Shown here piece after piece: positions 4,814 through 17,948 of a stretch of 64,000 nt of DNA (positions are counted from its first letter, which is position 1; every line of letters begins with the position of its first letter). The stretch lies in IMG/VR virus record IMGVR_UViG_3300019776_000919, positions 1-64,000 of that record, one strand, 5' to 3'. The stretch comes from a virus. Position numbers and translations under genes: made by a program. The notes under the pieces were generated by a model, which was not told where the DNA came from, made no database searches, and saw only the letters and a list, made by a program, of their open reading frames with translations.

Positions 4814-5632
4814 ATGAGTAAAAGCATCAGAGTAGATACTAACAGCCTAATATCTGGGGCTGTTGTAATAGGTGATAGAGGATTAGGAGTTTCAGGATCC
4901 TCTGTACCTAGTACCGGGGCGGGTGGCCCGGGGTATATTTATCCAAGTTTAAATCTCCCGGCTGATGCTAACAATGAATATATCGGGTTAATAGTAAGTC
5001 CTCCGTCTGCAGGGACTTTTTTTGCTAATGAAGATACTAGCGCTACCCTAACTGGAGCATCGACAGGCATATACCCATTTACAGTAAACTTAATAGAAAA
5101 TGGGATTAGCTTAGGGAATTTTACTAGCTATTTCTATATAAATACACCTATACCTGTAAATCTGGTTGTTGCAAATTCTGTTCAAAGTAATACTTCTACT
5201 AGCGTAACCATAACTAGAGTTAACAACTTAGTTGTTTCTAACTCAACTCAATCTAATTTTTCAAATTCAGTATCAATTTCACAAACTGTAAATTTAATTT
5301 CAGTTGCATCTTTACAGTTAAATAGTTGCAGTACGGGAACTATCAGTATCAGTTCTGGGTTACAAGCAACGTCTTGTGTACAAAACAATACAAGTTCTAC
5401 GGGGGCAATCTCCGTATTCTATAATTTACAAGGGTCTAATTCAACGCAGCAGAACTCTTGTACTTCTGGTTTTGTCTATGGACCCGGGTTAGGAATCCCC
5501 TTAGATGTAAGTCAATCCACCCAATCAAACTATTGCTTTAGTGGACCTATCCAAGTTTTACCTCCAGTATTTGTAAACATAATACCTATAACTGCAGGTA
5601 TTACCCTGGACGGTCAAATCATTCTTTTCTAG
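4814..5632 (+). CDS. putative virion fibre/accessory protein
   Basis: Repeats of about 21 aa (L.V.nS.QSN.S.s..I) also present in the preceding protein. Confidence 0.55.
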   Translation: MSKSIRVDTNSLISGAVVIGDRGLGVSGSSVPSTGAGGPGYIYPSLNLPADANNEYIGLIVSPPSAGTFFANEDTSATLTGASTGIYPFTVNLIENGISLGNFTSYFYINTPIPVNLVVANSVQSNTSTSVTITRVNNLVVSNSTQSNFSNSVSISQTVNLISVASLQLNSCSTGTISISSGLQATSCVQNNTSSTGAISVFYNLQGSNSTQQNSCTSGFVYGPGLGIPLDVSQSTQSNYCFSGPIQVLPPVFVNIIPITAGITLDGQIILF

Positions 5633-5885
5633 TTTTAGATGCCGGGTGATCGCCCCAATGAACCTTACCTTTAAATAAAGGCGGAGGAATCCAACGGGGT
5701 TTCGGGGAGATGGGGCCAAAACCTACTACTGCAATTTCACCGTTTTTACGAAGTCTGCCAAACATTACATGAGGAAAAGGCCCCCAGTGGGACCTTCTTA
5801 TAACTAAGAACCCTCTTCTGTTTTTTAGTTTTCTCCGCCTGTATAGGATTAAGGCGAAAATAATGCAATTAGAATAACCCCTCAT
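5619..5885 (-). CDS. small basic hypothetical protein
   Basis: 88-aa ATG ORF filling the gap between convergent operons. Confidence 0.45.
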   Translation of the reverse strand: MRGYSNCIIFALILYRRRKLKNRRGFLVIRRSHWGPFPHVMFGRLRKNGEIAVVGFGPISPKPRWIPPPLFKGKVHWGDHPASKTRKE

Positions 5886-5962
5886 TCTTGTATTTTAAGT
5901 CTGGGTCTACTTACAATGTAAGTTATTACAATATGTTAAATAAGCTAAAAAAAAATAAGCTA

Positions 5963-5993
5963 AAAAAACAGGTTATATTTAACCTTGTTTTTT
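5963..5993 (-). terminator. intrinsic terminator downstream of RT (bidirectional)
   Basis: AAAAAACAGGTTA-TATT-TAACCTTGTTTTTT hairpin with A/T tracts on both sides. Confidence 0.65.
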
Positions 5994-6000
5994 ACCAGAA

Positions 6001-7227
6001 TTATGTAGTTATCTGTGATACGGTGAAATCGGAGGAATTCTTAAACCCCAACATCGCCTCTTTTATTTCCTCTGTAGTAGCAGGCATTTCTATGCCAGAG
6101 TTCCACGATAGTTCAGGTATTTGAACATCCGGATATTTTTTCAGATACGGTGTGGTAACTTTCTTGAATGCCAGTTTAAACGCCATACCGGCATCTGGAT
6201 TTAGCTGACACATCCAGTTTATGCGACCGGCATATTTCCGTATGAAAGCCTCGGGACTAAGCCTCGTTTTTGCCGCTTCGTGTTCTATTCCGTTTTGTTT
6301 GCAATTGTGAATTATTGCTCTAAGTTGAAGTCTTTCTGTTTTCTTTAAATTTACTTTTTCATTAACTACCGATCCACATACCCATTGTCGGTTATGCGGC
6401 CTCATGACTTTTGTTTTGGCATTGTTGATCAGAAACCCTGCATCATTGACAGCTTTCTTGATCGTATCCAATATAAGATTGGTATGTTCTTTTGCTTGAT
6501 CTAATGTATCAAATTTTTTATTATGAGATACTGTGATATCGTCTGCATAAATAGTTAGTTGCAGTTCATTCTCATCACAGAACGCTTTTACTACGGGGCC
6601 GAATGTGTATGCTGCAATTAAGTTACTAATTTTCGGGGCCGTTAATGAACCTTGAGGAACGTAAAACTTATAGGTGCATGCTTCTGCCAACAATCTTGCT
6701 GGCATTTCACCTATACCTAATTCCTTAAACAACTGTTCCACCATATATTCTTTAATGGATGGAAAAAAGTCTTTAATATCAAGGCTTATTACCACTTCTT
6801 TACCTAAGTGCTTTTCAGCCATCTTAGGAATAGATTTCCCCTTTTCAAATCCGTAAATGTATTCGGGGATTTCTACTTTATCCAGTATCCTACTTAAAAT
6901 TCGATACTGTAATACTCTCATCCCCGTATTTGGATTATGAATTTTCCTCAGCTTCTGCTTCGACGATTTCGTAGCCTTCTTCTTCAAGAAGAGTATGGAG
7001 TAGTGTGAGTTCTTGTTCTTTATAAACCAAGTCAGCTTCTGAGTCGTCTCCCACTCCAGTAACTTGGTCAAATCCTTGGATGTTGCGATCCCCGATATCT
7101 TTTGAAGTATTGGGTTTAGCTTGAACCTCTTCTGCGTCTTGCTTAGCTGTTTTGGTTCTTTCTTTTGTTCGATAATCATTATTGCAGAAGTCGTCATATG
7201 TAAGTGTTGTTTTTTTTGCCGGTACAT
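6001..7227 (-). CDS. retron-class reverse transcriptase
   Basis: HY..F.LKKK...R.IHNP, YGFEKGKS..KMAEKH (region X-like), LDIKDFFPSI, PQGSLTAPKISN, YADD, N.AKT, VCGSVVN (region Y VTG variant), retron-like thumb; exact start uncertain. Confidence 0.9.
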   Translation of the reverse strand: MYRQKKQHLHMTTSAIMIIEQKKEPKQLSKTQKRFKLNPILQKISGIATSKDLTKLLEWETTQKLTWFIKNKNSHYSILFLKKKATKSSKQKLRKIHNPNTGMRVLQYRILSRILDKVEIPEYIYGFEKGKSIPKMAEKHLGKEVVISLDIKDFFPSIKEYMVEQLFKELGIGEMPARLLAEACTYKFYVPQGSLTAPKISNLIAAYTFGPVVKAFCDENELQLTIYADDITVSHNKKFDTLDQAKEHTNLILDTIKKAVNDAGFLINNAKTKVMRPHNRQWVCGSVVNEKVNLKKTERLQLRAIIHNCKQNGIEHEAAKTRLSPEAFIRKYAGRINWMCQLNPDAGMAFKLAFKKVTTPYLKKYPDVQIPELSWNSGIEMPATTEEIKEAMLGFKNSSDFTVSQITT

Positions 7228-7663
7228 GTCTAATGGATCGTATTACGCCTCTTTTCAAATCACCTAGCGTTACGTAATACAATTCACGATCTATTACTAC
7301 AAACCCTTCTCTAACAATACCGGGGGGGAAATTTGCCCTCCAAATATTGTCGTTCATACGGGCTGGGGTCCCCATTTTATAGTAATAAAACTTCCCTTGA
7401 TAAGGGACTATATATCTACTTGATCTTCGGGCCAGCTTACTATCTACTTCTCCGTAAGCTGTACTACCTTTTGGCGCAATTATCTGTATACCAGTCTCAT
7501 ACGAAGGTATTTCATACCCGTAATCTATAAGATCTTTTTGAGTTACAGATATATTTTTTGGTATCGATGACCCGGCTTTAACGTATATTACTCCTTCTTC
7601 TTGTGGAGTTGCATTTACTCCAGCTGTTGTAGTTTCTACTGATTTGCTATTAGGAGTGCTCAT
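6935..7663 (-). CDS. hypothetical protein upstream of, and overlapping, the RT (candidate partner/effector)
   Basis: 242-aa ATG ORF co-oriented with the RT; last 293 nt overlap the RT ORF in another frame. Confidence 0.65.
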   Translation of the reverse strand: MSTPNSKSVETTTAGVNATPQEEGVIYVKAGSSIPKNISVTQKDLIDYGYEIPSYETGIQIIAPKGSTAYGEVDSKLARRSSRYIVPYQGKFYYYKMGTPARMNDNIWRANFPPGIVREGFVVIDRELYYVTLGDLKRGVIRSIRHVPAKKTTLTYDDFCNNDYRTKERTKTAKQDAEEVQAKPNTSKDIGDRNIQGFDQVTGVGDDSEADLVYKEQELTLLHTLLEEEGYEIVEAEAEENS

Positions 7664-7699
7664 TTTATCTGTATCAGATCTTGAGCCCCCGAAATTTTT

Positions 7700-7849
7700 T
7701 TAAATAGCTGACGAAGTTTTGAACTGTTCCCGAGTAGTCAATATCACATTTCTGACAGTGTGATAGATTTCCAGGATAAAGTTACCAACTAAGATCATTG
7801 CTTTAGCTACTGCTTTAATTTTCGGGAGGAGGTTTAGTAAAGAGTTCAT
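7700..7849 (-). CDS. small hypothetical peptide (MNSLLNLL...)
   Basis: 49-aa ATG ORF between the 7928 promoter and the 7663 gene; could instead be non-coding leader. Confidence 0.35.
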   Translation of the reverse strand: MNSLLNLLPKIKAVAKAMILVGNFILEIYHTVRNVILTTREQFKTSSAI

Positions 7850-7927
7850 ATTTAGTTTTATTGTTTTAATGTAAAAATTCAGGTAAAATGACAAACTCTA
7901 ATTGGTCGTTCTATTCTACCTATTTTT

Positions 7928-7936
7928 CTTATACCA
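7928..7936 (-). promoter_or_regulatory. phage promoter (TGGTATAAG) for the RT operon
   Basis: Exact match to the motif repeated before nine - strand units; -35 is degenerate here. Confidence 0.6.
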
Positions 7937-7964
7937 GAAATTAACGAATTGTGTAGCAAATTAC

Positions 7965-9192: not shown

Positions 9193-10083
9193 ATGATCGG
9201 TTATACCCTAAAACACGTACTTGAGCTGGTTCCAGAAGCTCTGCCTTTAGTTAAACAAGCTTCAGTCGACGCGGAATATCCAATCTCGTCAAAAGACAAT
9301 TGCTTAGCTTCCGCCTTAGCTATTAACTATAAGAAGAATTTCACAGGCGAAACTGTAGATTATGATGTTCTTCAAAAAGTAGCTAATGCAGTAGATTTAT
9401 ATAATTTAGAGGATACTGTTTCTACTCTGACTAATAAAATGATCTCTCGCAATTCTGCAAAGATTGTCAAACAAGCGAGTTTAGCAAATGAACCATCTTT
9501 TCTATTGAAGCAAGCTAACTGGATCGGTGATCTGGCAGGTATGACTAATGTCAGAGAAATGTCTGAGGCTGCAGAGGAACTGTTCGAAAAGGCTGCGAGT
9601 TTAAACGAAGCCGTAGATCCTAGAGTAGAGATGTATTCCGGTAGAGGTGTACTGGTCAAAGAAGCGGTCTTAGCTTCCCTTGAAGCTAGATTTTCGGCGG
9701 TAAAAGATAGCACTTTTGTAAAAATCGCCTCTGCTGTTGGGCAAGAACCTGATTTAATTTCTAATCCTAGAACAGTGAAATCTTTATGTTCAGTAATCAA
9801 CAAACTTGATGAAAAACATCAATTATTTTCAGTCGGATATAATTTTGTAAAAGAAGCTATGATCACAAAAAAGGCTAGCTTTACAAAATGTCAAGTCAAA
9901 GTTTCAGGTAAAGAATATCCTTTAGAGAAGATTCTAAGTCTTCCGTCCAACCAACTAGATGGGTATTTGGGCGAAGGTTTCACTAAAGAATTGAATAGTG
10001 ACCCTAATTCTGCGAAATATCTGATAGAATCCTTGCCTGCTGATAGTCAGCAAATATTGGCAACTATTCTGAAAAACGTTTAA
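9193..10083 (+). CDS. putative head/virion protein
   Basis: Repeated K(Q/A/I)AS motifs; operon context. Confidence 0.45.
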   Translation: MIGYTLKHVLELVPEALPLVKQASVDAEYPISSKDNCLASALAINYKKNFTGETVDYDVLQKVANAVDLYNLEDTVSTLTNKMISRNSAKIVKQASLANEPSFLLKQANWIGDLAGMTNVREMSEAAEELFEKAASLNEAVDPRVEMYSGRGVLVKEAVLASLEARFSAVKDSTFVKIASAVGQEPDLISNPRTVKSLCSVINKLDEKHQLFSVGYNFVKEAMITKKASFTKCQVKVSGKEYPLEKILSLPSNQLDGYLGEGFTKELNSDPNSAKYLIESLPADSQQILATILKNV

Positions 10084-10610
10084 TGATAAACAAAGATATT
10101 AAAATTTCACATTTGATATTCTTGCTAAATACTAAATTTGGCGAAGAGTGGAAAGAATGGGAACCTGAGACTATAATGTCTGAAATAGGTTTTCCTGATT
10201 ATTTAGTCATGGAAAAAATCTATGTTCTTCAGACACTGAGTAAAGGTCTCAATGAGGCAATATCTATTCCCGAATTTTTTTGTTGGCTTTGTTCAATTGT
10301 AAACAACGACTACGCCGAATTTGAAACTCTAGAAATGCCTAATTGCTTAGAAATGGCTTGGGCTATCATAGAAGTGAAAAGGGTTGCTCAGCTGTTAAAC
10401 GTCGAGTTTAAACCCACCGAAGAGTTCTGCGACATAACAGGTTATCTTCTTAAAGAAGAGGGATTCTCAAAAACAACTTATCCATTCGAGTTTCTTTCTG
10501 AAAAATACTTTACCCCAGGTCAAACTGAAGAAGATGTAGCTTTAAAAAACAAAGGTATTCAAGCATATATTGCATTCATGGATAAGTCATTACCAACAGT
10601 AGAAACTTAA
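10083..10610 (+). CDS. hypothetical protein
   Basis: TAATG-coupled ORF, WEPETI motif. Confidence 0.55.
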   Translation: MINKDIKISHLIFLLNTKFGEEWKEWEPETIMSEIGFPDYLVMEKIYVLQTLSKGLNEAISIPEFFCWLCSIVNNDYAEFETLEMPNCLEMAWAIIEVKRVAQLLNVEFKPTEEFCDITGYLLKEEGFSKTTYPFEFLSEKYFTPGQTEEDVALKNKGIQAYIAFMDKSLPTVET

Positions 10611-10611
10611 T

Positions 10612-11019
10612 ATGTCAACCTTACAAGCTACAATAAATACCGCTATTTCTTTTGCAATAGCCGGTCCTGACAATACTACTCCACTTACAGATAGTGGCAT
10701 CTATTTAGATGGTAATGTATCCTCAGAGACCATGACGGCTACTAGAATAGGCTCGACCTTAATGTGGAAATTGTCTTTTAGTCCAGCCTCCACCGGTACA
10801 TACACTATCTACGCTTTTGGCAAAGTGCAAGTCTATTTACAGGTCACCGCTCGCTCTGTTCAAAGTCTTCTTACTAACATTGAAGATGAAGCTTTAGGCA
10901 GTTGGTCATGGAATAAGACTACGGGAGTGCTTACTATGCTTCGTCAAAACGGTACTACGTTATCCACATATTCCGTGACAGATACATTAGCTTCTGCCAC
11001 TAGAGAAAAGCTCTCTTAA
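10612..11019 (+). CDS. putative virion Ig-like protein
   Basis: beta-rich, F.P..TGTYTIY motif. Confidence 0.5.
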   Translation: MSTLQATINTAISFAIAGPDNTTPLTDSGIYLDGNVSSETMTATRIGSTLMWKLSFSPASTGTYTIYAFGKVQVYLQVTARSVQSLLTNIEDEALGSWSWNKTTGVLTMLRQNGTTLSTYSVTDTLASATREKLS

Positions 11020-11026
11020 ATAATCT

Positions 11027-11052
11027 AAAAAAGAGGGTTAACCTCTTTTTTT
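11027..11052. terminator. bidirectional intrinsic terminator
   Basis: AAAAAAGAGG-GTTAA-CCTCTTTTTTT between convergent genes. Confidence 0.75.
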
Positions 11053-11065
11053 CTTCTTGTTAAGA

Positions 11066-12277
11066 TTATTCCGTCATAGGTTGTAACGGAGGTATTCCTT
11101 CAGGAAGTGGTGGGACAGGGATGGGGTTTAAAGTTACCCCTTCACTCTCTGGTGTTGATGCATCGGCAGTAGACGTAGCTACCTTTTTCTTCGGTTTTTT
11201 CACCGGAGTTAAAGGAGGTACTTCTTTAGACACTTGAACTTCTGGTACCGCTTCTTCTTTTGGAGGTCGAGGAATAGATTCAAAGTCCCCGGAAATAGTA
11301 ACCCTAAGGTTAGCTGCGGCGTAATCTACTAAAGTACTTTCTACGGGTTTCCAAAGAGTTTTGAATTCTTTAGTGTCACAGCCGTATAAAAACTCCCCAA
11401 CGTCTGATTCCGTTTTGCTGTGGTTTGTAGCACAACGCCGAATCCATTGCCGAGGCGTATTCCACTCTGTTACAATTGAGCCGTCTAAAGCATATCTAAT
11501 CCCGTCGTACGCCATAGGTTTCAAATACAAAAAGTTTTGAACTGTCGAGCATATCAACGCAGCCATCATATTGTTAATGGCTAACGATTGGGGTAGATCT
11601 ACGCAAGATAACTCAGACGCACTGCCACCTAGATCATTGTAGTAAGCCAGGTCAATCGGAATATAGTCTACATCTTCTGGGGCGGACAAGGCTTTCGGTA
11701 CATAATCTACCTTCCGTTGATTAAACGTAGTAGGTACAGAATTAGTGGTAAAAAATTTGATTTGACCGAAAGCATCCTCGTTACCAGCATCAATTACAAA
11801 TATATTCCTGGCACCGGTACTTGCCGTACGGTACAAGGACTGAGGACCTCTATATAAGAGGTTTCTCAAAATAGTTCGTCTAGCATCAGCAGAGTCAACT
11901 GCCAAAATAACTATTGAATTATTAAAGCTCGGTAATTGATCTGCTCCGATAAAAGTTATATTACCGGATAGAGTTATAAATTCAGTACAAGCAAAAATAG
12001 GGACGCCAAACGCATTGGCGTATCTGTTTGCTAATACTGCCGCTTTATTTTTTCCAACATCCTTTGCGACAAAATGTTGTCGCATCAAATTCTTCTCTTC
12101 TACTATGTCCCCGTCTATAACATAGATTGGTAGATTTGCAATCCAAGCTTGAGGGTTAAATTTAGTAGTACATGTTCTAACTAATTGAGATAGACCAGGC
12201 ATAAGCCTAGATCCGGTTCCACCAGCTCCGATTAGGATGATTGAACTGGGAACAAAATGAGGTTTATAATTGTACAT
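11066..12277 (-). CDS. ThiF/E1-like ubiquitin-activating enzyme (PRTRC-type)
   Basis: IGAGGTGS, DGD.VE.KNL.RQ.F...DVG.NKA..LA.RY, AVDS..AR, IDAGN, LSC (putative catalytic Cys), Q.L.IN. Confidence 0.9.
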   Translation of the reverse strand: MYNYKPHFVPSSIILIGAGGTGSRLMPGLSQLVRTCTTKFNPQAWIANLPIYVIDGDIVEEKNLMRQHFVAKDVGKNKAAVLANRYANAFGVPIFACTEFITLSGNITFIGADQLPSFNNSIVILAVDSADARRTILRNLLYRGPQSLYRTASTGARNIFVIDAGNEDAFGQIKFFTTNSVPTTFNQRKVDYVPKALSAPEDVDYIPIDLAYYNDLGGSASELSCVDLPQSLAINNMMAALICSTVQNFLYLKPMAYDGIRYALDGSIVTEWNTPRQWIRRCATNHSKTESDVGEFLYGCDTKEFKTLWKPVESTLVDYAAANLRVTISGDFESIPRPPKEEAVPEVQVSKEVPPLTPVKKPKKKVATSTADASTPESEGVTLNPIPVPPLPEGIPPLQPMTE

Positions 12278-12336
12278 AAGTATGTAAGGGTATAAGTAAA
12301 AGTATTACCTTCTACTTATACCAGTTTTTTGTTTAT

Positions 12337-13902
12337 TTACAAACCATTAGCCGCCAAATCATCTTTTGCTTTTTCCGGCAAAAGTTCAGCAAGCCGACGA
12401 AAAATATTGAGTCTATCACTCTCCCGAATAACTTCAAACATTCCGCTGATACTGCGCTCCAGCAAAACGGGGGAAGATGCTAACGTAGGAGTAGCTAAAT
12501 CAACGGCCATGTATGCTCTTGCTGCATCTACTCCGTGATTTATAGCAATCGAATCAAATTCACCCATCTCAGGGCCATTTTCTCCTACGAGTTCAGCTGC
12601 TGCCATATTGCGATCTATTTCCCGGAAATACTCGTCAGCTTGTTGACTCAAACTATCGTCTGATGCATCTTCTTGACTGAAAGAAGTCTCGATGATTCTG
12701 CGAGCGTTTTGCTTAATGGTTTCAGTTTCCGGATCCCCTGCCATGTTAGCAAAAAGTTCGTTATAGTCTTCTTCCGTCAATGCACCGTTTCCGATTTCCA
12801 CCAATTGAGACCCGTCTCCTCGAAATCGGCTCCCCGGCGGGACTCCTTCAGTATCTTGTGCCTTTGATGACGCGGACGTTTGAGTAGTTTGGCCCTGTTG
12901 GTGACGGCTTGTTTTCTGTTGCTTTTTCATCTCCGACGCTTGGCGTCGAAGTTCCCGCTTGATAGATTTTTTTGACACTGCACCCCCTTGGGCAGAAGTG
13001 TTTGTTTGAGTTGAAGTAGATTCTTCGTTAGAAGTGCCGGTCTGTTGTACCCCATGAATAGGTCCCGACATTCCATACCCAAAGCCAAAACTTGTTTGAG
13101 CGGGAGGGTTATTGTTAACTTGTCTAACGGGAAAATAAGTACGAGATTGGTTACTCTGCCAATTCCCATAATTACCGCCAGGGTAAGACACTGCTGCCGG
13201 AGTGTTGACGTTTACCTTGTCCAACCAAGTAGAAGGGATTTCTTTAGGAAGTTCTTTTTGTTCAAACAAGTCTGTCATTTGAACATCCATTCGACTGCCG
13301 TGGTAGGTAAAGCGGAATTTCATACTACGTTCCGGCTTATCGTTATGTCCGATAACTCCACTATACCGAATGCAATTTGTGTCGTCCCGATCATCAGTGC
13401 CGCTAAAGAATGCATTGAAGTCGGCATGTGAATGGATATCCACAACAATGGTAGATTCAGGAGGCAAAGACGACCAGTCATATGTTGCGCTGGCGTGACC
13501 TACAGTTTGGTTTGGAACGTGAAGGTGGTAACCTTCTTTCTCATTCCAAAGAATCCAAATCATTGCTTCGAGCGCTTTACCCTTCTTCACAATAACTTGG
13601 CGGAAGAATTCTTTAACTTCATTCAGCAAATCCATCGGGATTTTCCCGTCTGGTAGAAAATTAATCCCGGGAGTAACCTTAGGCAACGTAGCCCCAGGGA
13701 TTTCCTTAACCGGTAGACAAATATACCGAGCTTTGCCGCCAGCGCCAGGGCGCAAAATGTGATATTTAACCGGACCAGTTTCACTCATCATAAAGATTTG
13801 ACTGTAACCCTGCTGAATAGCTTGCTCTAGGGGGGTTATTCCATCAACAGTCTCATCTCCAAGTTCGATAATGCAGGAGATATAGGGTGCTAAGATTTTC
13901 AT
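12337..13902 (-). CDS. JAB/MPN+ metalloprotease (PRTRC protein A-like) with long low-complexity C-terminal extension
   Basis: Upstream Glu (LEAM) plus DIHSHADFNAFFSGTDDRDD = HxH-x7-S-xx-D JAMM motif. Confidence 0.88.
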   Translation of the reverse strand: MKILAPYISCIIELGDETVDGITPLEQAIQQGYSQIFMMSETGPVKYHILRPGAGGKARYICLPVKEIPGATLPKVTPGINFLPDGKIPMDLLNEVKEFFRQVIVKKGKALEAMIWILWNEKEGYHLHVPNQTVGHASATYDWSSLPPESTIVVDIHSHADFNAFFSGTDDRDDTNCIRYSGVIGHNDKPERSMKFRFTYHGSRMDVQMTDLFEQKELPKEIPSTWLDKVNVNTPAAVSYPGGNYGNWQSNQSRTYFPVRQVNNNPPAQTSFGFGYGMSGPIHGVQQTGTSNEESTSTQTNTSAQGGAVSKKSIKRELRRQASEMKKQQKTSRHQQGQTTQTSASSKAQDTEGVPPGSRFRGDGSQLVEIGNGALTEEDYNELFANMAGDPETETIKQNARRIIETSFSQEDASDDSLSQQADEYFREIDRNMAAAELVGENGPEMGEFDSIAINHGVDAARAYMAVDLATPTLASSPVLLERSISGMFEVIRESDRLNIFRRLAELLPEKAKDDLAANGL

Positions 13903-13923
13903 GGTAGTTTCTACGCTTATAAA

Positions 13924-14703
13924 TTAATAAATTCGAAGTTCTTCGTAAGGAAAAGTGCCACCTTGATCGGCTAACTTTTTAAGGTGAGAATACCACTTAG
14001 AGTATTCCTCGTTTCGGAATTTAGGTTTTAACGCTGTTAAACCCAAGTCGTTATTAAAAGGAGCATCAAACAGTAATTGGTAGTAGGAGTGCAAACCTCT
14101 TAAATCTGGAAGTTTGTATGAACTGATTTTTGTATTGGATCCGTAACAAAGTTTTCCAGATTCATATACGTTAGTAAACGGTAAGATCGATACTCCATTC
14201 TCAGCGGTTATAAACGTACGAGGAATCTCTTGTAGAGAGTCCCTAGTTGCATAGTAACGCGTGTCATTGACTAAATATTCAGTCGGCCCGCTTTTTACCA
14301 ATGATTGAGAAATGATTACGTTCGGAAAAACAACATTGAACGGGCTATTGCTTAGATATTTAATCGGTTTAATACCGCCCGGATAATAGCAACAAACTCG
14401 AATTCCGTTTTTCGATTTTTCAAAATAAAAAGCGCCATTCGGCAACCATATTTCTTGTTTTTGAGATTCCCCAGTATCAGAAGCTTCCACGTTTGCATTC
14501 AGAAGCCCGATAAATTCAGGGTAACTAACAACTTTGTAAAGGCCAGGTGTTAGCTCTAGGCGGACACTATTCTGAAGCATTTCTACTTTGATAGCCTCCA
14601 CAGTAATTGTTTTTACGGGTTCCTGTTTAACTTCAGGGGGTTTTTCTGCGGCTGCGTCTTGTTCAACTACCGCCGTGGTATCTAATACAAAATCTGAACT
14701 CAT
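13924..14703 (-). CDS. prokaryotic E2-like conjugating enzyme (PRTRC protein B / Prok-E2 family D-like)
   Basis: LPFTNVYESGKLCYGSN matches PFxNV..G.xC.G with putative catalytic Cys; F.APFNNDL; lies between Ubl and JAB/E1. Confidence 0.8.
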   Translation of the reverse strand: MSSDFVLDTTAVVEQDAAAEKPPEVKQEPVKTITVEAIKVEMLQNSVRLELTPGLYKVVSYPEFIGLLNANVEASDTGESQKQEIWLPNGAFYFEKSKNGIRVCCYYPGGIKPIKYLSNSPFNVVFPNVIISQSLVKSGPTEYLVNDTRYYATRDSLQEIPRTFITAENGVSILPFTNVYESGKLCYGSNTKISSYKLPDLRGLHSYYQLLFDAPFNNDLGLTALKPKFRNEEYSKWYSHLKKLADQGGTFPYEELRIY

Positions 14704-15086
14704 AGGAAATCATCTAAGTCCGGTATTGAATACAAAGTAGGGATCTTTTTTGCCATAAAATTTAAACCTTGTATGGCTTTAGTCTTATCCGTGTAATTTT
14801 TATAGACGTGCCTGAGCATTGTATCTGCTATCAATCTCAGGTCTTCACTCACCCCTAAAGCTATTAAATCTTGCGGTGGCTTTACTTCTGATTGAAAACT
14901 TTTAAAGTCTTTTCTATAAATATAGGGATCAGGACCTATTGATTTAAGACTAGGGAGAATCCGGTCTCCAATAGTGTCTTTTGCACCAATAGGGCTAGAC
15001 AGTATCTTAATAGTTTCCCGGATCTCACCGAGGTCATCGGCCTTTTTTACATTAAAAGCTTGGGATACTAAGTTTGATAGGTTCAT
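14700..15086 (-). CDS. hypothetical protein in Ubl operon
   Basis: ATGA-coupled to the E2 gene. Confidence 0.55.
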   Translation of the reverse strand: MNLSNLVSQAFNVKKADDLGEIRETIKILSSPIGAKDTIGDRILPSLKSIGPDPYIYRKDFKSFQSEVKPPQDLIALGVSEDLRLIADTMLRHVYKNYTDKTKAIQGLNFMAKKIPTLYSIPDLDDFL

Positions 15087-15927
15087 TGGCGACCAATCTC
15101 GTAATTGTTTTCAATATTGTTGGGAGCTTCGGTAAGTAATATAGAGGATGCACTGGTTGATCTTTACTAGACTGCAAATACTCCTGTAACAGGGTATTAA
15201 CCAATTTAATGCTTTCTTCAGGATTGGATTTAATAGGGTCCATTTTAATTCTAAATTTATCCATAAGGTAACCGTATTTCCTATCCGTAATCCCGTTGAA
15301 ATTTCTGAAATCCCTCATGTTAAGGCAATCAGCAGTATCTGGGAAACTTGCGTATGTTTTATCTACCCGATTATTAGCCGGGATTATTTTTTCGCAATAA
15401 GTTGCTCTTTTGCTGAAAGTATGTATGACCCATGAGACCTCGAATATCTTCATTTCAGGTAGCAGTTTGCCATGGGCCAAATCTTCCATTAAGGTTCCAG
15501 CTCCTTTTTGATAAGGCGTTGGATTTAAAATCGATACTGAATTTTTTACACCCATTAAATTGGTAACGCAAAACTTCTGTATGAGCCGAACGTATCGCTC
15601 TAATACTTTAGTCTTTCTCGCTGCGCCAAGTTCAGTATCTACAAATCTAAATGTCATTACTAAGGATAAAGGATCCTCTGTAACCATTAATTGGAAAAGA
15701 TGATTGTCATAGCTCAGAGCTTCGGAAACCATCTGGGCTCGAATCCCATCCCGAATGTGCCGCCCTGAAATATTGTGTTGGCCGGTTAGGGCCCGCATAT
15801 AAGGAATCTTCTCCGCTAAAAGATCAGTGGACATCTGATCTAAAAGTGTTTTTATTACAGAGTCTGCAGCAACGTCTGTAATTTGAGAATCTTTAGGTAT
15901 TTTTATTTGAGTAACGATGCCTGCCAT
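15052..15927 (-). CDS. hypothetical protein in Ubl operon
   Basis: 291-aa ORF with GAGGG RBS. Confidence 0.65.
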   Translation of the reverse strand: MAGIVTQIKIPKDSQITDVAADSVIKTLLDQMSTDLLAEKIPYMRALTGQHNISGRHIRDGIRAQMVSEALSYDNHLFQLMVTEDPLSLVMTFRFVDTELGAARKTKVLERYVRLIQKFCVTNLMGVKNSVSILNPTPYQKGAGTLMEDLAHGKLLPEMKIFEVSWVIHTFSKRATYCEKIIPANNRVDKTYASFPDTADCLNMRDFRNFNGITDRKYGYLMDKFRIKMDPIKSNPEESIKLVNTLLQEYLQSSKDQPVHPLYYLPKLPTILKTITRLVANEPIKLSIPSF

Positions 15928-16002
15928 ATACCCTCAGTTGTAAATTGAAGGACTAAAAAAAGCAGGCATCTTGCCCGCTTATCCTAGCCTAAAAGGCTAA
16001 AA

Positions 16003-16212
16003 TTAACCCTTATTTCCCGTGCGGGGGGCAAAGGTAACTTCTCGAACATCACCCTCCGGGGTGGTGTTGACAACCGTGGTAGCAGTCATGTTATTGATGC
16101 CAGGGATCTGGGCACCGTACATACTTTGAATGCGAGCTGCGTCAAAGTCACCGGGGATGTTGTACAGAGCGTCGATGCTGGGGACACGGATAATAGTCTT
16201 AATAACGGCCAT
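16003..16212 (-). CDS. ubiquitin-like protein (PRTRC protein C-like)
   Basis: 69 aa, beta-grasp-sized, ends F.PRTGNKG (C-terminal Gly, GxKG as in PRTRC protein C); first gene after promoter. Confidence 0.8.
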   Translation of the reverse strand: MAVIKTIIRVPSIDALYNIPGDFDAARIQSMYGAQIPGINNMTATTVVNTTPEGDVREVTFAPRTGNKG

Positions 16213-16292
16213 AATGTTCTCTTGTTTCTAGAAAAAAAGGAAAGGGTAAAAAAGGAAAGTCAAAGATAAGAGAAACTCATCTTCGTACTTTT

Positions 16293-16321
16293 CTTATACC
16301 AGGTATTGCCAAATTATTGAA
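16293..16321 (-). promoter_or_regulatory. phage promoter driving the Ubl operon
   Basis: TTCAAT-N17-TATAAG with TGG extension, followed by AAAAGTAC. Confidence 0.75.
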
Positions 16322-16352
16322 AATTTATTAGGTTATAATACTAGATATATCT

Positions 16353-17948
16353 ATGGAAATTAAAGCATCTCAATTAGCCCCTGCAATTCTTCAACTAAAG
16401 GGGAAGCCGTTAGACCTGTCAGAGTATAAACCGTTTGAACTCGTATACGACGTATCTCCTCCTACATTAACTGCGTGTTGTGGAAGACAGATAGGTAAGT
16501 CAGTTAGTTTGGCAAGTGCTATTACAACAACGAGTATTTTACGCAAGCATTTTTCTACTCTGTTTGTAAGTCCTTTATCCCAGCAAACTTCTAGATTTTC
16601 AACTCAATATCTAGAACCTTTTATTAACTCTCCTATTGTTAAAAATCACTTCATAGATGCGTCTTCTAAGAAAAACGTATTTTCTAGAACTTTTACCAAT
16701 GGCTCTGCAGTTACTTTAGGTTACGCAGAGACGGAGCAAGACGCCGACCGTATTCGTGGGGTTTCAGCGGATCAAATGTATTTTGACGAGGTACAGGATG
16801 CCAGTTTGGAAGCTTTGCCTATTTTGGAAGAAACGCTGTCTGCCTCCGAGCACATGTTTAGACGATACACCGGTACTGCAAAAGGGGAATCGAATACTCT
16901 AACAGTTTTGTTTAAAAGATCTAACATGTTGGAGTGGGTTGTAAGATGTACTCACTGCGGAAAACACGCTATACCCAATGAGTTTGAAACCTGTTTAAAA
17001 ATTATTAACGCCAATCCTAACGGCCCAGGTTGTCCACATTGCGGCGGGTTGTTGGATATGAAAACTGGAGTTTGGATGGCTGGTAAACCAAGTGTAAAAA
17101 ATCACGTAGGTGTTCATATACCTCAATTTTGCATTCCAGCTAGAACCACCCCTAAGAAATGGGCGGAGTTGGTAGATAAGGCAAAAAGGTACGATCACAT
17201 TAAATTAAGTAATGAAGTTTTTGGATTACCCGTAGGAGCTGGTGGTAGACCTCTTTCTTTAAGACAAGTAATGGGAGTCTGTAACCCTTCAAGAACTTCT
17301 TTTGATACAGGTTTTCCTAAAGACGATAGAAATATCCTATTTACAGTGCTAGGTGTAGACTGGAGTGTTACGGGATCCGAAAAGAGTTATACCGTCGTTA
17401 CTGTTCTGGGATTTGACTACTCTGGTAAACAGTATATTGTGTACGCTCAGAGATTGGATGGTATTGATATACTAGCTCAAGTATCTAGAGTAATAGAACT
17501 CTATAGACAGTTCGAATGTTCACATATTGCCTCAGATAGAGGGGTTGGTGTTCTACAAGGTCAATTAATGAAGAGAGCACTTGGAGATGACAAAGTTAGT
17601 ATGATTAATTACGTTGCTGCAAAAGCGAACCTCCGTTTCGATAAAGAAGGTAATTATTTTGCTGCAGATAGAACTTTAGCAATTGATACTGCAGTTATCA
17701 AGATCAAGATGGGGCCCAGTAAATTGGAATCTCCAGCTTGGTCATTAATGGAAACGTTTTGGAATGACGCCCTGCATATATACGAAGAGGAATCGCATAG
17801 CGGTAGACGACTGTACAGAAAAGATGAGGACGGCACCGACGATTTCTTACACTCCTTAGTTTTCGCAAACATAGCTCATATGATTGTTAAAGGTGACTTT
17901 ACATATCAAGATAAAGAATCAATTGAAGATGATACTTTTAATTTCTAA
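16353..17948 (+). CDS. terL: terminase large subunit
   Basis: Walker A-like GRQIGKS, Walker B YFDEVQD, TGT motif, Zn-ribbon CxxC...CxxC, nuclease GVDW and DDFLHS. Confidence 0.88.
   Translation: MEIKASQLAPAILQLKGKPLDLSEYKPFELVYDVSPPTLTACCGRQIGKSVSLASAITTTSILRKHFSTLFVSPLSQQTSRFSTQYLEPFINSPIVKNHFIDASSKKNVFSRTFTNGSAVTLGYAETEQDADRIRGVSADQMYFDEVQDASLEALPILEETLSASEHMFRRYTGTAKGESNTLTVLFKRSNMLEWVVRCTHCGKHAIPNEFETCLKIINANPNGPGCPHCGGLLDMKTGVWMAGKPSVKNHVGVHIPQFCIPARTTPKKWAELVDKAKRYDHIKLSNEVFGLPVGAGGRPLSLRQVMGVCNPSRTSFDTGFPKDDRNILFTVLGVDWSVTGSEKSYTVVTVLGFDYSGKQYIVYAQRLDGIDILAQVSRVIELYRQFECSHIASDRGVGVLQGQLMKRALGDDKVSMINYVAAKANLRFDKEGNYFAADRTLAIDTAVIKIKMGPSKLESPAWSLMETFWNDALHIYEEESHSGRRLYRKDEDGTDDFLHSLVFANIAHMIVKGDFTYQDKESIEDDTFNF

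Follow-up and report, generated by a model that had tools for sequence, protein, structure and literature searches.

The present analysis examines an operon for a ubiquitin-like protein (Ubl) and putative conjugation enzymes in the virus genome IMGVR_UViG_3300019776_000919 of IMG/VR, a record of 169,713 bp with direct terminal repeats, of which the first 64 kb (positions 1 to 64,000) form the window studied here. Six co-oriented open reading frames (ORFs), every one of them intact, lie on the minus strand between 11066 and 16212 in the order Ubl-X-Y-E2-JAB-E1, X and Y being genes for which no family could be named, and they stand back to back with the gene for the large terminase (TerL), an arrangement that had been proposed in a first-pass annotation and that the ORFs and the divergent TerL gene bear out. 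Patterns detected in the proteins, in their relatives and in a structure model suggest that the operon probably encodes an active, phage-autonomous Ubl-conjugation cascade and that this cascade belongs to the core of a phage lineage.

The modifier and the enzymes

The smallest product has, as first annotated, 69 residues with TGNKG at the end. Its AlphaFold2 model, built on an 18-sequence alignment, reached a predicted local distance difference test score (pLDDT) of 90.1 and a predicted template-modelling score (pTM) of 0.75, with the topology strand-strand-helix-strand-strand and residues 64-69, ending RTGNKG, as a free and loose tail. The first-pass annotation had staked its reading on a beta-grasp fold, and the model has that fold, with Ubl and MoaD proteins among its neighbors. 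Comparison by VIA-align with 48,161 chains gave Z values of 3.6-4.8 over 54-68 residues, and the top of the list was nearly all beta-grasp, including GB1, the TINCR Ubl, MoaD, ubiquitin, FAT10, Fubi, ISG15 and SUMO, while the best Foldseek rows were domains of protein L and protein G, a MoaD-like protein, UBX and NEDD8. A word-based protein search with the Ubl found only the Ubl itself. Among the 18 aligned members F61, G66 and G69 are invariant and K68 is nearly so, giving a C-terminal motif G-x-K-G with which all the homologues end, usually as R-T-G-[NT]-K-G. Profile-profile comparison by hhalign against a set of PRTRC_C-type proteins, including one labelled protein C in RefSeq, related the family to PRTRC protein C with 95.8% probability (E 7.7e-9); TIGR03738 was weakly matched by three of the 18 aligned members (best E 0.0012), the window Ubl not being one of them. 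Judged on the model and, most strongly, on the comparative evidence of the shared ending and of the precursor forms described next, the 69-residue protein is a ubiquitin-like modifier with a beta-grasp fold and a tail ending in glycine.

Several relatives encode the modifier in a longer form. Double Ubl proteins occur at three of the related viral loci described below (L009, L017 and L020), a triple one in Vibrio phage D69 and a fivefold one at L028, and in L024, L026 and D69 between one and about 22 extra residues follow K-G; the junction in these fused and tailed forms is always after K-G. The D69 triple Ubl (VPHD69_0307, L162:4385-5176) and the fivefold Ubl (L028:3592-4698) have spacers and repeats ending in (K/R)TGTKG, and both resemble polyubiquitin precursors. 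Since such precursors exist in relatives, a peptidase must cut after K-G to free the terminal glycine, and judging from the gene set the JAB protein is the obvious candidate. The window Ubl is encoded in finished form, with no residues after K-G.

The three enzymes look active, insofar as their catalytic residues can be followed through alignments. For E1, which had been annotated as ThiF/E1 and does match ThiF, the glycine loop at residues 17-22 and D55, D57, R66, Q67, K78, D128 and C225 are invariant or nearly invariant among 27 homologues. The catalytic cysteine C225 is kept in Salmonella phage Arash, in D69 and in the canonical PRTRC ThiF of Ralstonia phage Dina. Among solved structures the E1 profile comes closest to the NEDD8 E1 subunit UBA3 and to UBA7 (E about 1e-6), with MccB behind them. 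The best NCBIfam match is TIGR03736 (PRTRC_ThiF) at 88.4 bits, below its cut-off of 144.75; ThiF and MoeB families are matched weakly too, and the protein carries a tail rich in proline and lysine. For E2, the cysteine that had been put forward as catalytic is Cys186, which is invariant together with P175, N178 and G188 in 25 sequences, among them the Dina protein labelled PRTRC protein B in RefSeq. The Pfam family Prok-E2_D is matched by 22 of the 25 aligned relatives (best E 1.6e-45), and NCBIfam gave no E2 match at E <= 0.01. The JAB protein, annotated from the start as a JAMM protease, has its metallopeptidase domain at residues ~85-230, followed by a low-complexity linker and a conserved C-terminal domain; E112, H157, S158, H159, S167 and D170 are invariant and make up the full JAMM motif E...HxH-x7-S-xx-D. 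Its only NCBIfam match is TIGR03735 (PRTRC_A), at 70.4 bits and again below the cut-off (101.8). Huntingtin matches obtained with the JAB profile fall on the low-complexity linker and were rejected as spurious, which leaves no real solved relative. At three loci (L014, L015 and L016, ~5500-7950) the JAB gene is split in two, a short one for the JAMM domain and a separate one for the C-terminal domain, and at L014 and L016 an extra gene on the opposite strand lies between the two parts.

An alternative explanation could be that nothing is conjugated to a target, the Ubl acting as a sulfur carrier of the ThiS/MoaD type or as an assembly chaperone trimmed by JAB in the manner of lambda tail proteins I and K. 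The MoaD chains among the fold neighbors, the weak ThiF and MoeB matches of E1 and the position of the operon beside virion genes are consistent with this, as is the connection of Ubl and JAB with tail assembly drawn by Iyer et al. 2006 (PMC1779556), but it would not account for an E2 with an invariant cysteine in every relative. Moreover, family matches of the Pfam and NCBIfam type revealed no sulfur-insertion enzyme, rhodanese or cysteine desulfurase among the operon products, the best solved relatives of E1 are UBA3 and UBA7 rather than MoeB or ThiF, and poly-Ubl precursors are typical of modifiers. We therefore regard a carrier or chaperone as improbable, and conjugation to targets as the better account of these proteins.

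Features of the locus are collected in Table 1. Directly behind the Ubl gene is a GC hairpin with a T-run, which is found in about 15 of the 21 loci that were folded (L003, L005, L006, L009, L010, L012, L014, L015, L023, L025, L026, L028, L162 and L163, besides the window), Arash and D69 included. This hairpin is a probable attenuator that would yield more Ubl mRNA than enzyme mRNA. In many loci it is followed by the string TTTTTTTAGT, present only three times in the 64-kb window and possibly a conserved signal before X. A second hairpin, bidirectional, closes the operon behind E1 and corresponds to the terminator of the first-pass annotation. The promoter annotated with it was not recovered: a consensus scan of the spacer between Ubl and TerL yielded none of the sigma-70 type, and a phage-specific promoter may still lie there.

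Table 1. Positions of the operon genes and of adjoining features in the window
Feature	Positions	Strand	Length	Evidence or remark
Ubl	16003-16212	-	69 amino acids	C-terminus PRTGNKG
X	15052-15927	-	291 amino acids	No family evidence
Y	14700-15086	-	128 amino acids	No family evidence
E2	13924-14703	-	259 amino acids	Prok-E2_D E 1.5e-4, under cut-off
JAB	12337-13902	-	521 amino acids	Prok-JAB 2e-8; PRTRC_A 1.5e-19
E1	11066-12277	-	403 amino acids	ThiF 2e-10; PRTRC_ThiF 4e-25
TerL (large terminase)	16353-17948	+		phrog_675 3e-52, GpA_ATPase; divergent from operon
Control spacer Ubl/TerL	16213-16352	divergent	140 bp	
Terminator-like GC hairpin and T-run	15952-15980	-		Directly behind Ubl gene; hairpin at 15960-15980
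Bidirectional terminator-like hairpin	11027-11051			Between E1 and convergent 135-amino-acid gene; closes operon
Three convergent neighbors	9193-11019	+	296, 175 and 135 amino acids	Homologous to Arash gp242, gp243 and gp245

None of the six operon proteins matched a PHROG family, PHROGs gave no name for the flanking genes, and the N-terminal tag motif M-N-K-Y-L-x-K-I-A was absent from all six proteins. A DNA search against 50,697 phage records found no match. Ten large neighboring proteins (window positions 1-30000) also had almost no PHROG matches, from which it follows that this phage is very distant from the described phage protein families. One neighbor, a 357-residue protein at 28-1101, matches Arash gp238, which adjoins the gene for a PAAR spike.

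Descent of the operon and the variable genes X and Y

When viral contigs were scanned with a profile of E1, 256 stretches proved to encode an E1 relative, and the best 80 were kept. Among these, 28 loci (L002-L029), many of them on contigs of 100-193 kb, share the order Ubl-X-Y-E2-JAB-E1, and in most the TerL gene is divergent on one side and the 135- and 175-residue genes are convergent on the other. The survey of related phages that the first-pass annotation had recommended thus shows the order kept, and it is kept as well in the deposited phages Arash and D69, which belong to two cultured genera and whose TerL is 44-48% and E1 31-37% identical to that of the window. The deposited relatives comprise Arash (180.8 kb), in which the operon runs from the gp251c region to gp246c, and three Vibrio phages of about 187 kb (D69, D181 and D148). 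All are of the same lineage and have the six genes in this order, under annotations that go no further than hypothetical or structural, and flanking genes are common to the window, Arash and the Vibrio phages; their X and Y bear no recognisable likeness to those of the window. The Arash record opens with TerL and closes with the operon, which makes the two adjacent on the circular map. E1, E2 and JAB diverge between pairs of loci in step with TerL (Spearman 0.68-0.71, Mantel p 0.001). This pattern fits vertical descent of the operon as a core element of the lineage.

Relatives in cellular genomes are distant. In a search of 185,579 species genomes the top E1 match shares 33% identity, and about 110 E1 clusters from metagenomes match at E < 1e-30. 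The nearest cellular E1 relatives (L083, L084, L089, L092 and L103, from Oscillospiraceae and related genomes) lie in loci composed of a protein of ~1000 residues, a JAB and an E1, with no recognisable separate gene for E2 or Ubl.

The Arash Ubl has 66 residues, ends in RRTGTKG and is read at L163:107-307, in a frame that differs from that of the annotated gp251c (L163:102-320, OQ632216.1); the deposited annotation probably misses it. GenBank labels the Arash homologues of E1 and E2, along with gp242 and gp245, as structural protein, and the proteome of Arash particles from a sucrose gradient lists Gp246-249 and Gp251 (PMC10585845).

X and Y present a different pattern from the enzymes. Between the window and its nearest relative, identity is 88% for TerL, 65% for Ubl, 46-51% for E1, E2 and JAB and 33-66% for the flanking genes, with no BLASTP match for X or Y. 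Every relative nevertheless has a gene of 199-355 codons in the position of X, and 26 of the 28 loci have one of 84-164 codons in that of Y. The first-pass annotation had left both as genes of unknown kind, and neither gave a family or fold here: neither is matched by any NCBIfam, Pfam or PHROG family, phmmer returned X alone from 1.84 billion representatives, and a profile of its positional homologues reached nine clusters that carry either no name or a wrong one. Only a weak colinear hidden Markov model match and the short motifs PY, RY and TLxRK connect X with the X family of its clade. The AlphaFold model of X is poor (pLDDT 50.6); its VIA-align matches, with Z up to 7.3, are to the generic small alpha/beta domain of aminotransferases and were set aside as uninformative, a structure-atlas search with X gave scores < 0.9 and TM < 0.5, and one with Y gave no match.

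Y is a small helical protein whose gene overlaps the end of X by 35 nucleotides and the start of E2 by 4. In most relatives (L004, L006, L009, L010, L011, L014, L017 and others) the X and Y frames overlap by ~22-44 nucleotides, with Y in the +1 frame. Most Y proteins have a conserved N-terminus, counted from the first methionine, and an acidic C-terminal end D-F-[VIL]. Acidic docking tails ending in an aromatic residue are known from SSB and from T7 gp2.5, and the Y tail, which resembles them, may be a docking peptide. Genes that keep their place while diverging so far would suit recognition factors or substrates, as far as gene order and alignments can indicate.

Comparison with known systems

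The gene set had been likened to the PRTRC cassettes of plasmids and integrative and conjugative elements, and the likeness holds. In the PRTRC cassette (ParB-Related, ThiF-Related Cassette; NCBIfam TIGR03734-03742) the order C(Ubl)-F-B(E2)-A(JAB)-ThiF(E1) matches Ubl-X-(Y)-E2-JAB-E1, and Ralstonia phage Dina (gp02-gp07) shows the canonical order E-C-F-B-A-ThiF. JAB and E1 find their best NCBIfam matches in PRTRC_A and PRTRC_ThiF, with scores under the curated cut-offs; the Ubl is a homologue of PRTRC_C and has the G-x-K-G motif in common with it, and the cysteines of E2 and E1 align with those of Dina. Several differences stand beside these. The operon has no ParB, and PRTRC proteins D, E and F were undetected; X holds the position of protein F but has no detectable link to it, none of 19 X homologues matching PRTRC_F even at E <= 1. 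The operon Ubl ends at K-G, whereas Dina protein C continues for about 65 residues after G-R-K-G, and the operon adds the small gene Y and long extra C-terminal regions on JAB and E1. The setting differs too, PRTRC cassettes being found in plasmids, integrative and conjugative elements and the early operons of temperate phages, and this operon in a 170-kb phage of lytic type beside TerL. Taken by gene content and order, the operon is a variant of the PRTRC-type system.

Absence of ParB from the operon was already noted in the first-pass annotation, and a scan of the complete 169,713-bp record, operon included, gave no ParB_N match, while control genomes did match. One could take this, with the missing proteins D, E and F, as the mark of an idle inherited cassette, a PRTRC remnant in decay, but all frames are open, and the catalytic residues persist across the whole range of relatives, from those whose TerL is 88% identical to cultured phages at 44-48%, so that such decay is very improbable.

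Prokaryotic operons of Ubl, E1, E2 and JAB were described by Iyer, Burroughs and Aravind in 2006, in Table 1 of which rows 6d and 6e include poly-Ubl forms (PMC1779556). The likeness to the present operon is a set of stand-alone Ubl, JAB, E1 and E2-like proteins on mobile DNA with poly-Ubl, and the phage links recorded in that article are only to Ubl and JAB of lambda-type tail assembly, with no full cascade. In Bil and in CBASS Cap2/Cap3, the C-terminus of a Ubl or of a target is activated by E1, passes through an E2 thioester and is acted on by JAB, and the same chemistry would be expected for the window proteins. Bil and CBASS are host defence, however, and no family-level match to them was found; in CBASS, furthermore, one fused protein combines E1 with E2 and a free Ubl is lacking, whereas separate genes encode them here. 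PADLOC returned only short matches of the E1 nucleotide loop to CBASS E1-E2 models (E 7e-6 to 8e-3) and no match for E2, JAB or Ubl, with the proviso that its 2023 release may lack Bil models.

The list of parts (Ubl, E2, JAB and E1) is the same as that of Bil, which is reported to tag phage tail proteins (PMC10557695, PMC11601596), and X and Y are hypervariable in the way of genes in conflict systems. From this it could be argued that the phage turns the operon on other mobile elements, as a defence of the Bil or CBASS kind or as a means of superinfection exclusion, and tags the parts of phages that compete with it in the same cell. This would not account for an operon that is fixed, vertically inherited and confined to one genomic place instead of forming a patchy accessory island, and apart from the faint loop matches of E1 the PADLOC models are unmatched and close cellular homologues are lacking among the 185,579 species genomes. 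We consider this use improbable, if somewhat less so than a carrier or chaperone, and return to a cascade that serves the phage itself. The reversal of host defence, also suggested in the first-pass annotation, gained nothing from the PADLOC result and sits poorly with an operon that is fixed in the core of the lineage.

Proposed function and significance

The first-pass annotation held that the phage runs its own protein-tagging pathway. The part of this that stands is a complete and apparently active set of Ubl, E1, E2 and JAB; for the chemical steps, their timing and their targets we infer the following scheme. The Ubl gene would be transcribed from the spacer that it has in common with TerL, and most transcripts would stop at the hairpin, so that the tag would exceed the enzymes. 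The Ubl of this phage would be ready for use, and the fused or tailed precursors of relatives would be cut by JAB after K-G. E1 would adenylate the terminal glycine and take it onto Cys225, after which Cys186 of E2 would receive the Ubl and pass it to an amino group, most likely that of lysine, on the targets, and JAB could also detach the tag. X and Y would most likely be fast-evolving partners that decide the targets or are themselves tagged.

Several observations weigh against this account. Foldseek found nothing for the Ubl in the PDB at E <= 0.001 (E 0.03 or higher), and the fold-match Z is modest, reaching at most 4.8, although low scores are to be expected because the domain is so small. 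The window E2 falls short of Prok-E2_D (22 bits, cut-off 25), its profile search found no solved structure, and neither an E3 or RING-like domain nor a target was recognised. The Arash particle preparation also held ribonucleotide reductases, helicases and many other enzymes (PMC10585845), and the numbering in that paper does not correspond one-to-one with the GenBank labels, so that presence in the virion is weak evidence; the proteome suggests that the operon proteins are made, and we do not extend it to membership of the virion. Lastly, our search of the literature turned up no work that tests the function of PRTRC or of such a cascade encoded by a phage.

As to what the tagging would serve, the place of the operon as a fixed core element beside packaging and virion genes leans slightly toward a role in the formation of the phage's own particles or in late takeover of the cell, which we put forward tentatively. 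A role in counter-defence ranks only just below it and is likewise tentative. A broader proposal, possible but on balance unlikely, is that a lineage of 165-190-kb phages runs Ubl ligation with X and Y as exchangeable adaptors and tags host proteins or its own virion proteins. Within this same uncertain proposal, tagged host proteins might be factors of defence or proteolysis, and virion parts might be tagged, for example, to shield them from tagging of the Bil type. If true, this would be the first viral Ubl-ligase system of bacteria.

Two practical consequences follow for work on these phages. First is that Arash and D69 are culturable members of the lineage, so the cascade is directly testable. 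Secondly, trypsin would leave a single glycine on the target lysine, with a mass equal to that of carbamidomethyl, and standard proteomics would overlook it. Tagging by ubiquitin-like proteins in bacteria has only recently been tied to anti-phage defence, and a complete kit on the side of the phage, kept over deep divergence, would show that bacterial viruses use Ubl chemistry as well.

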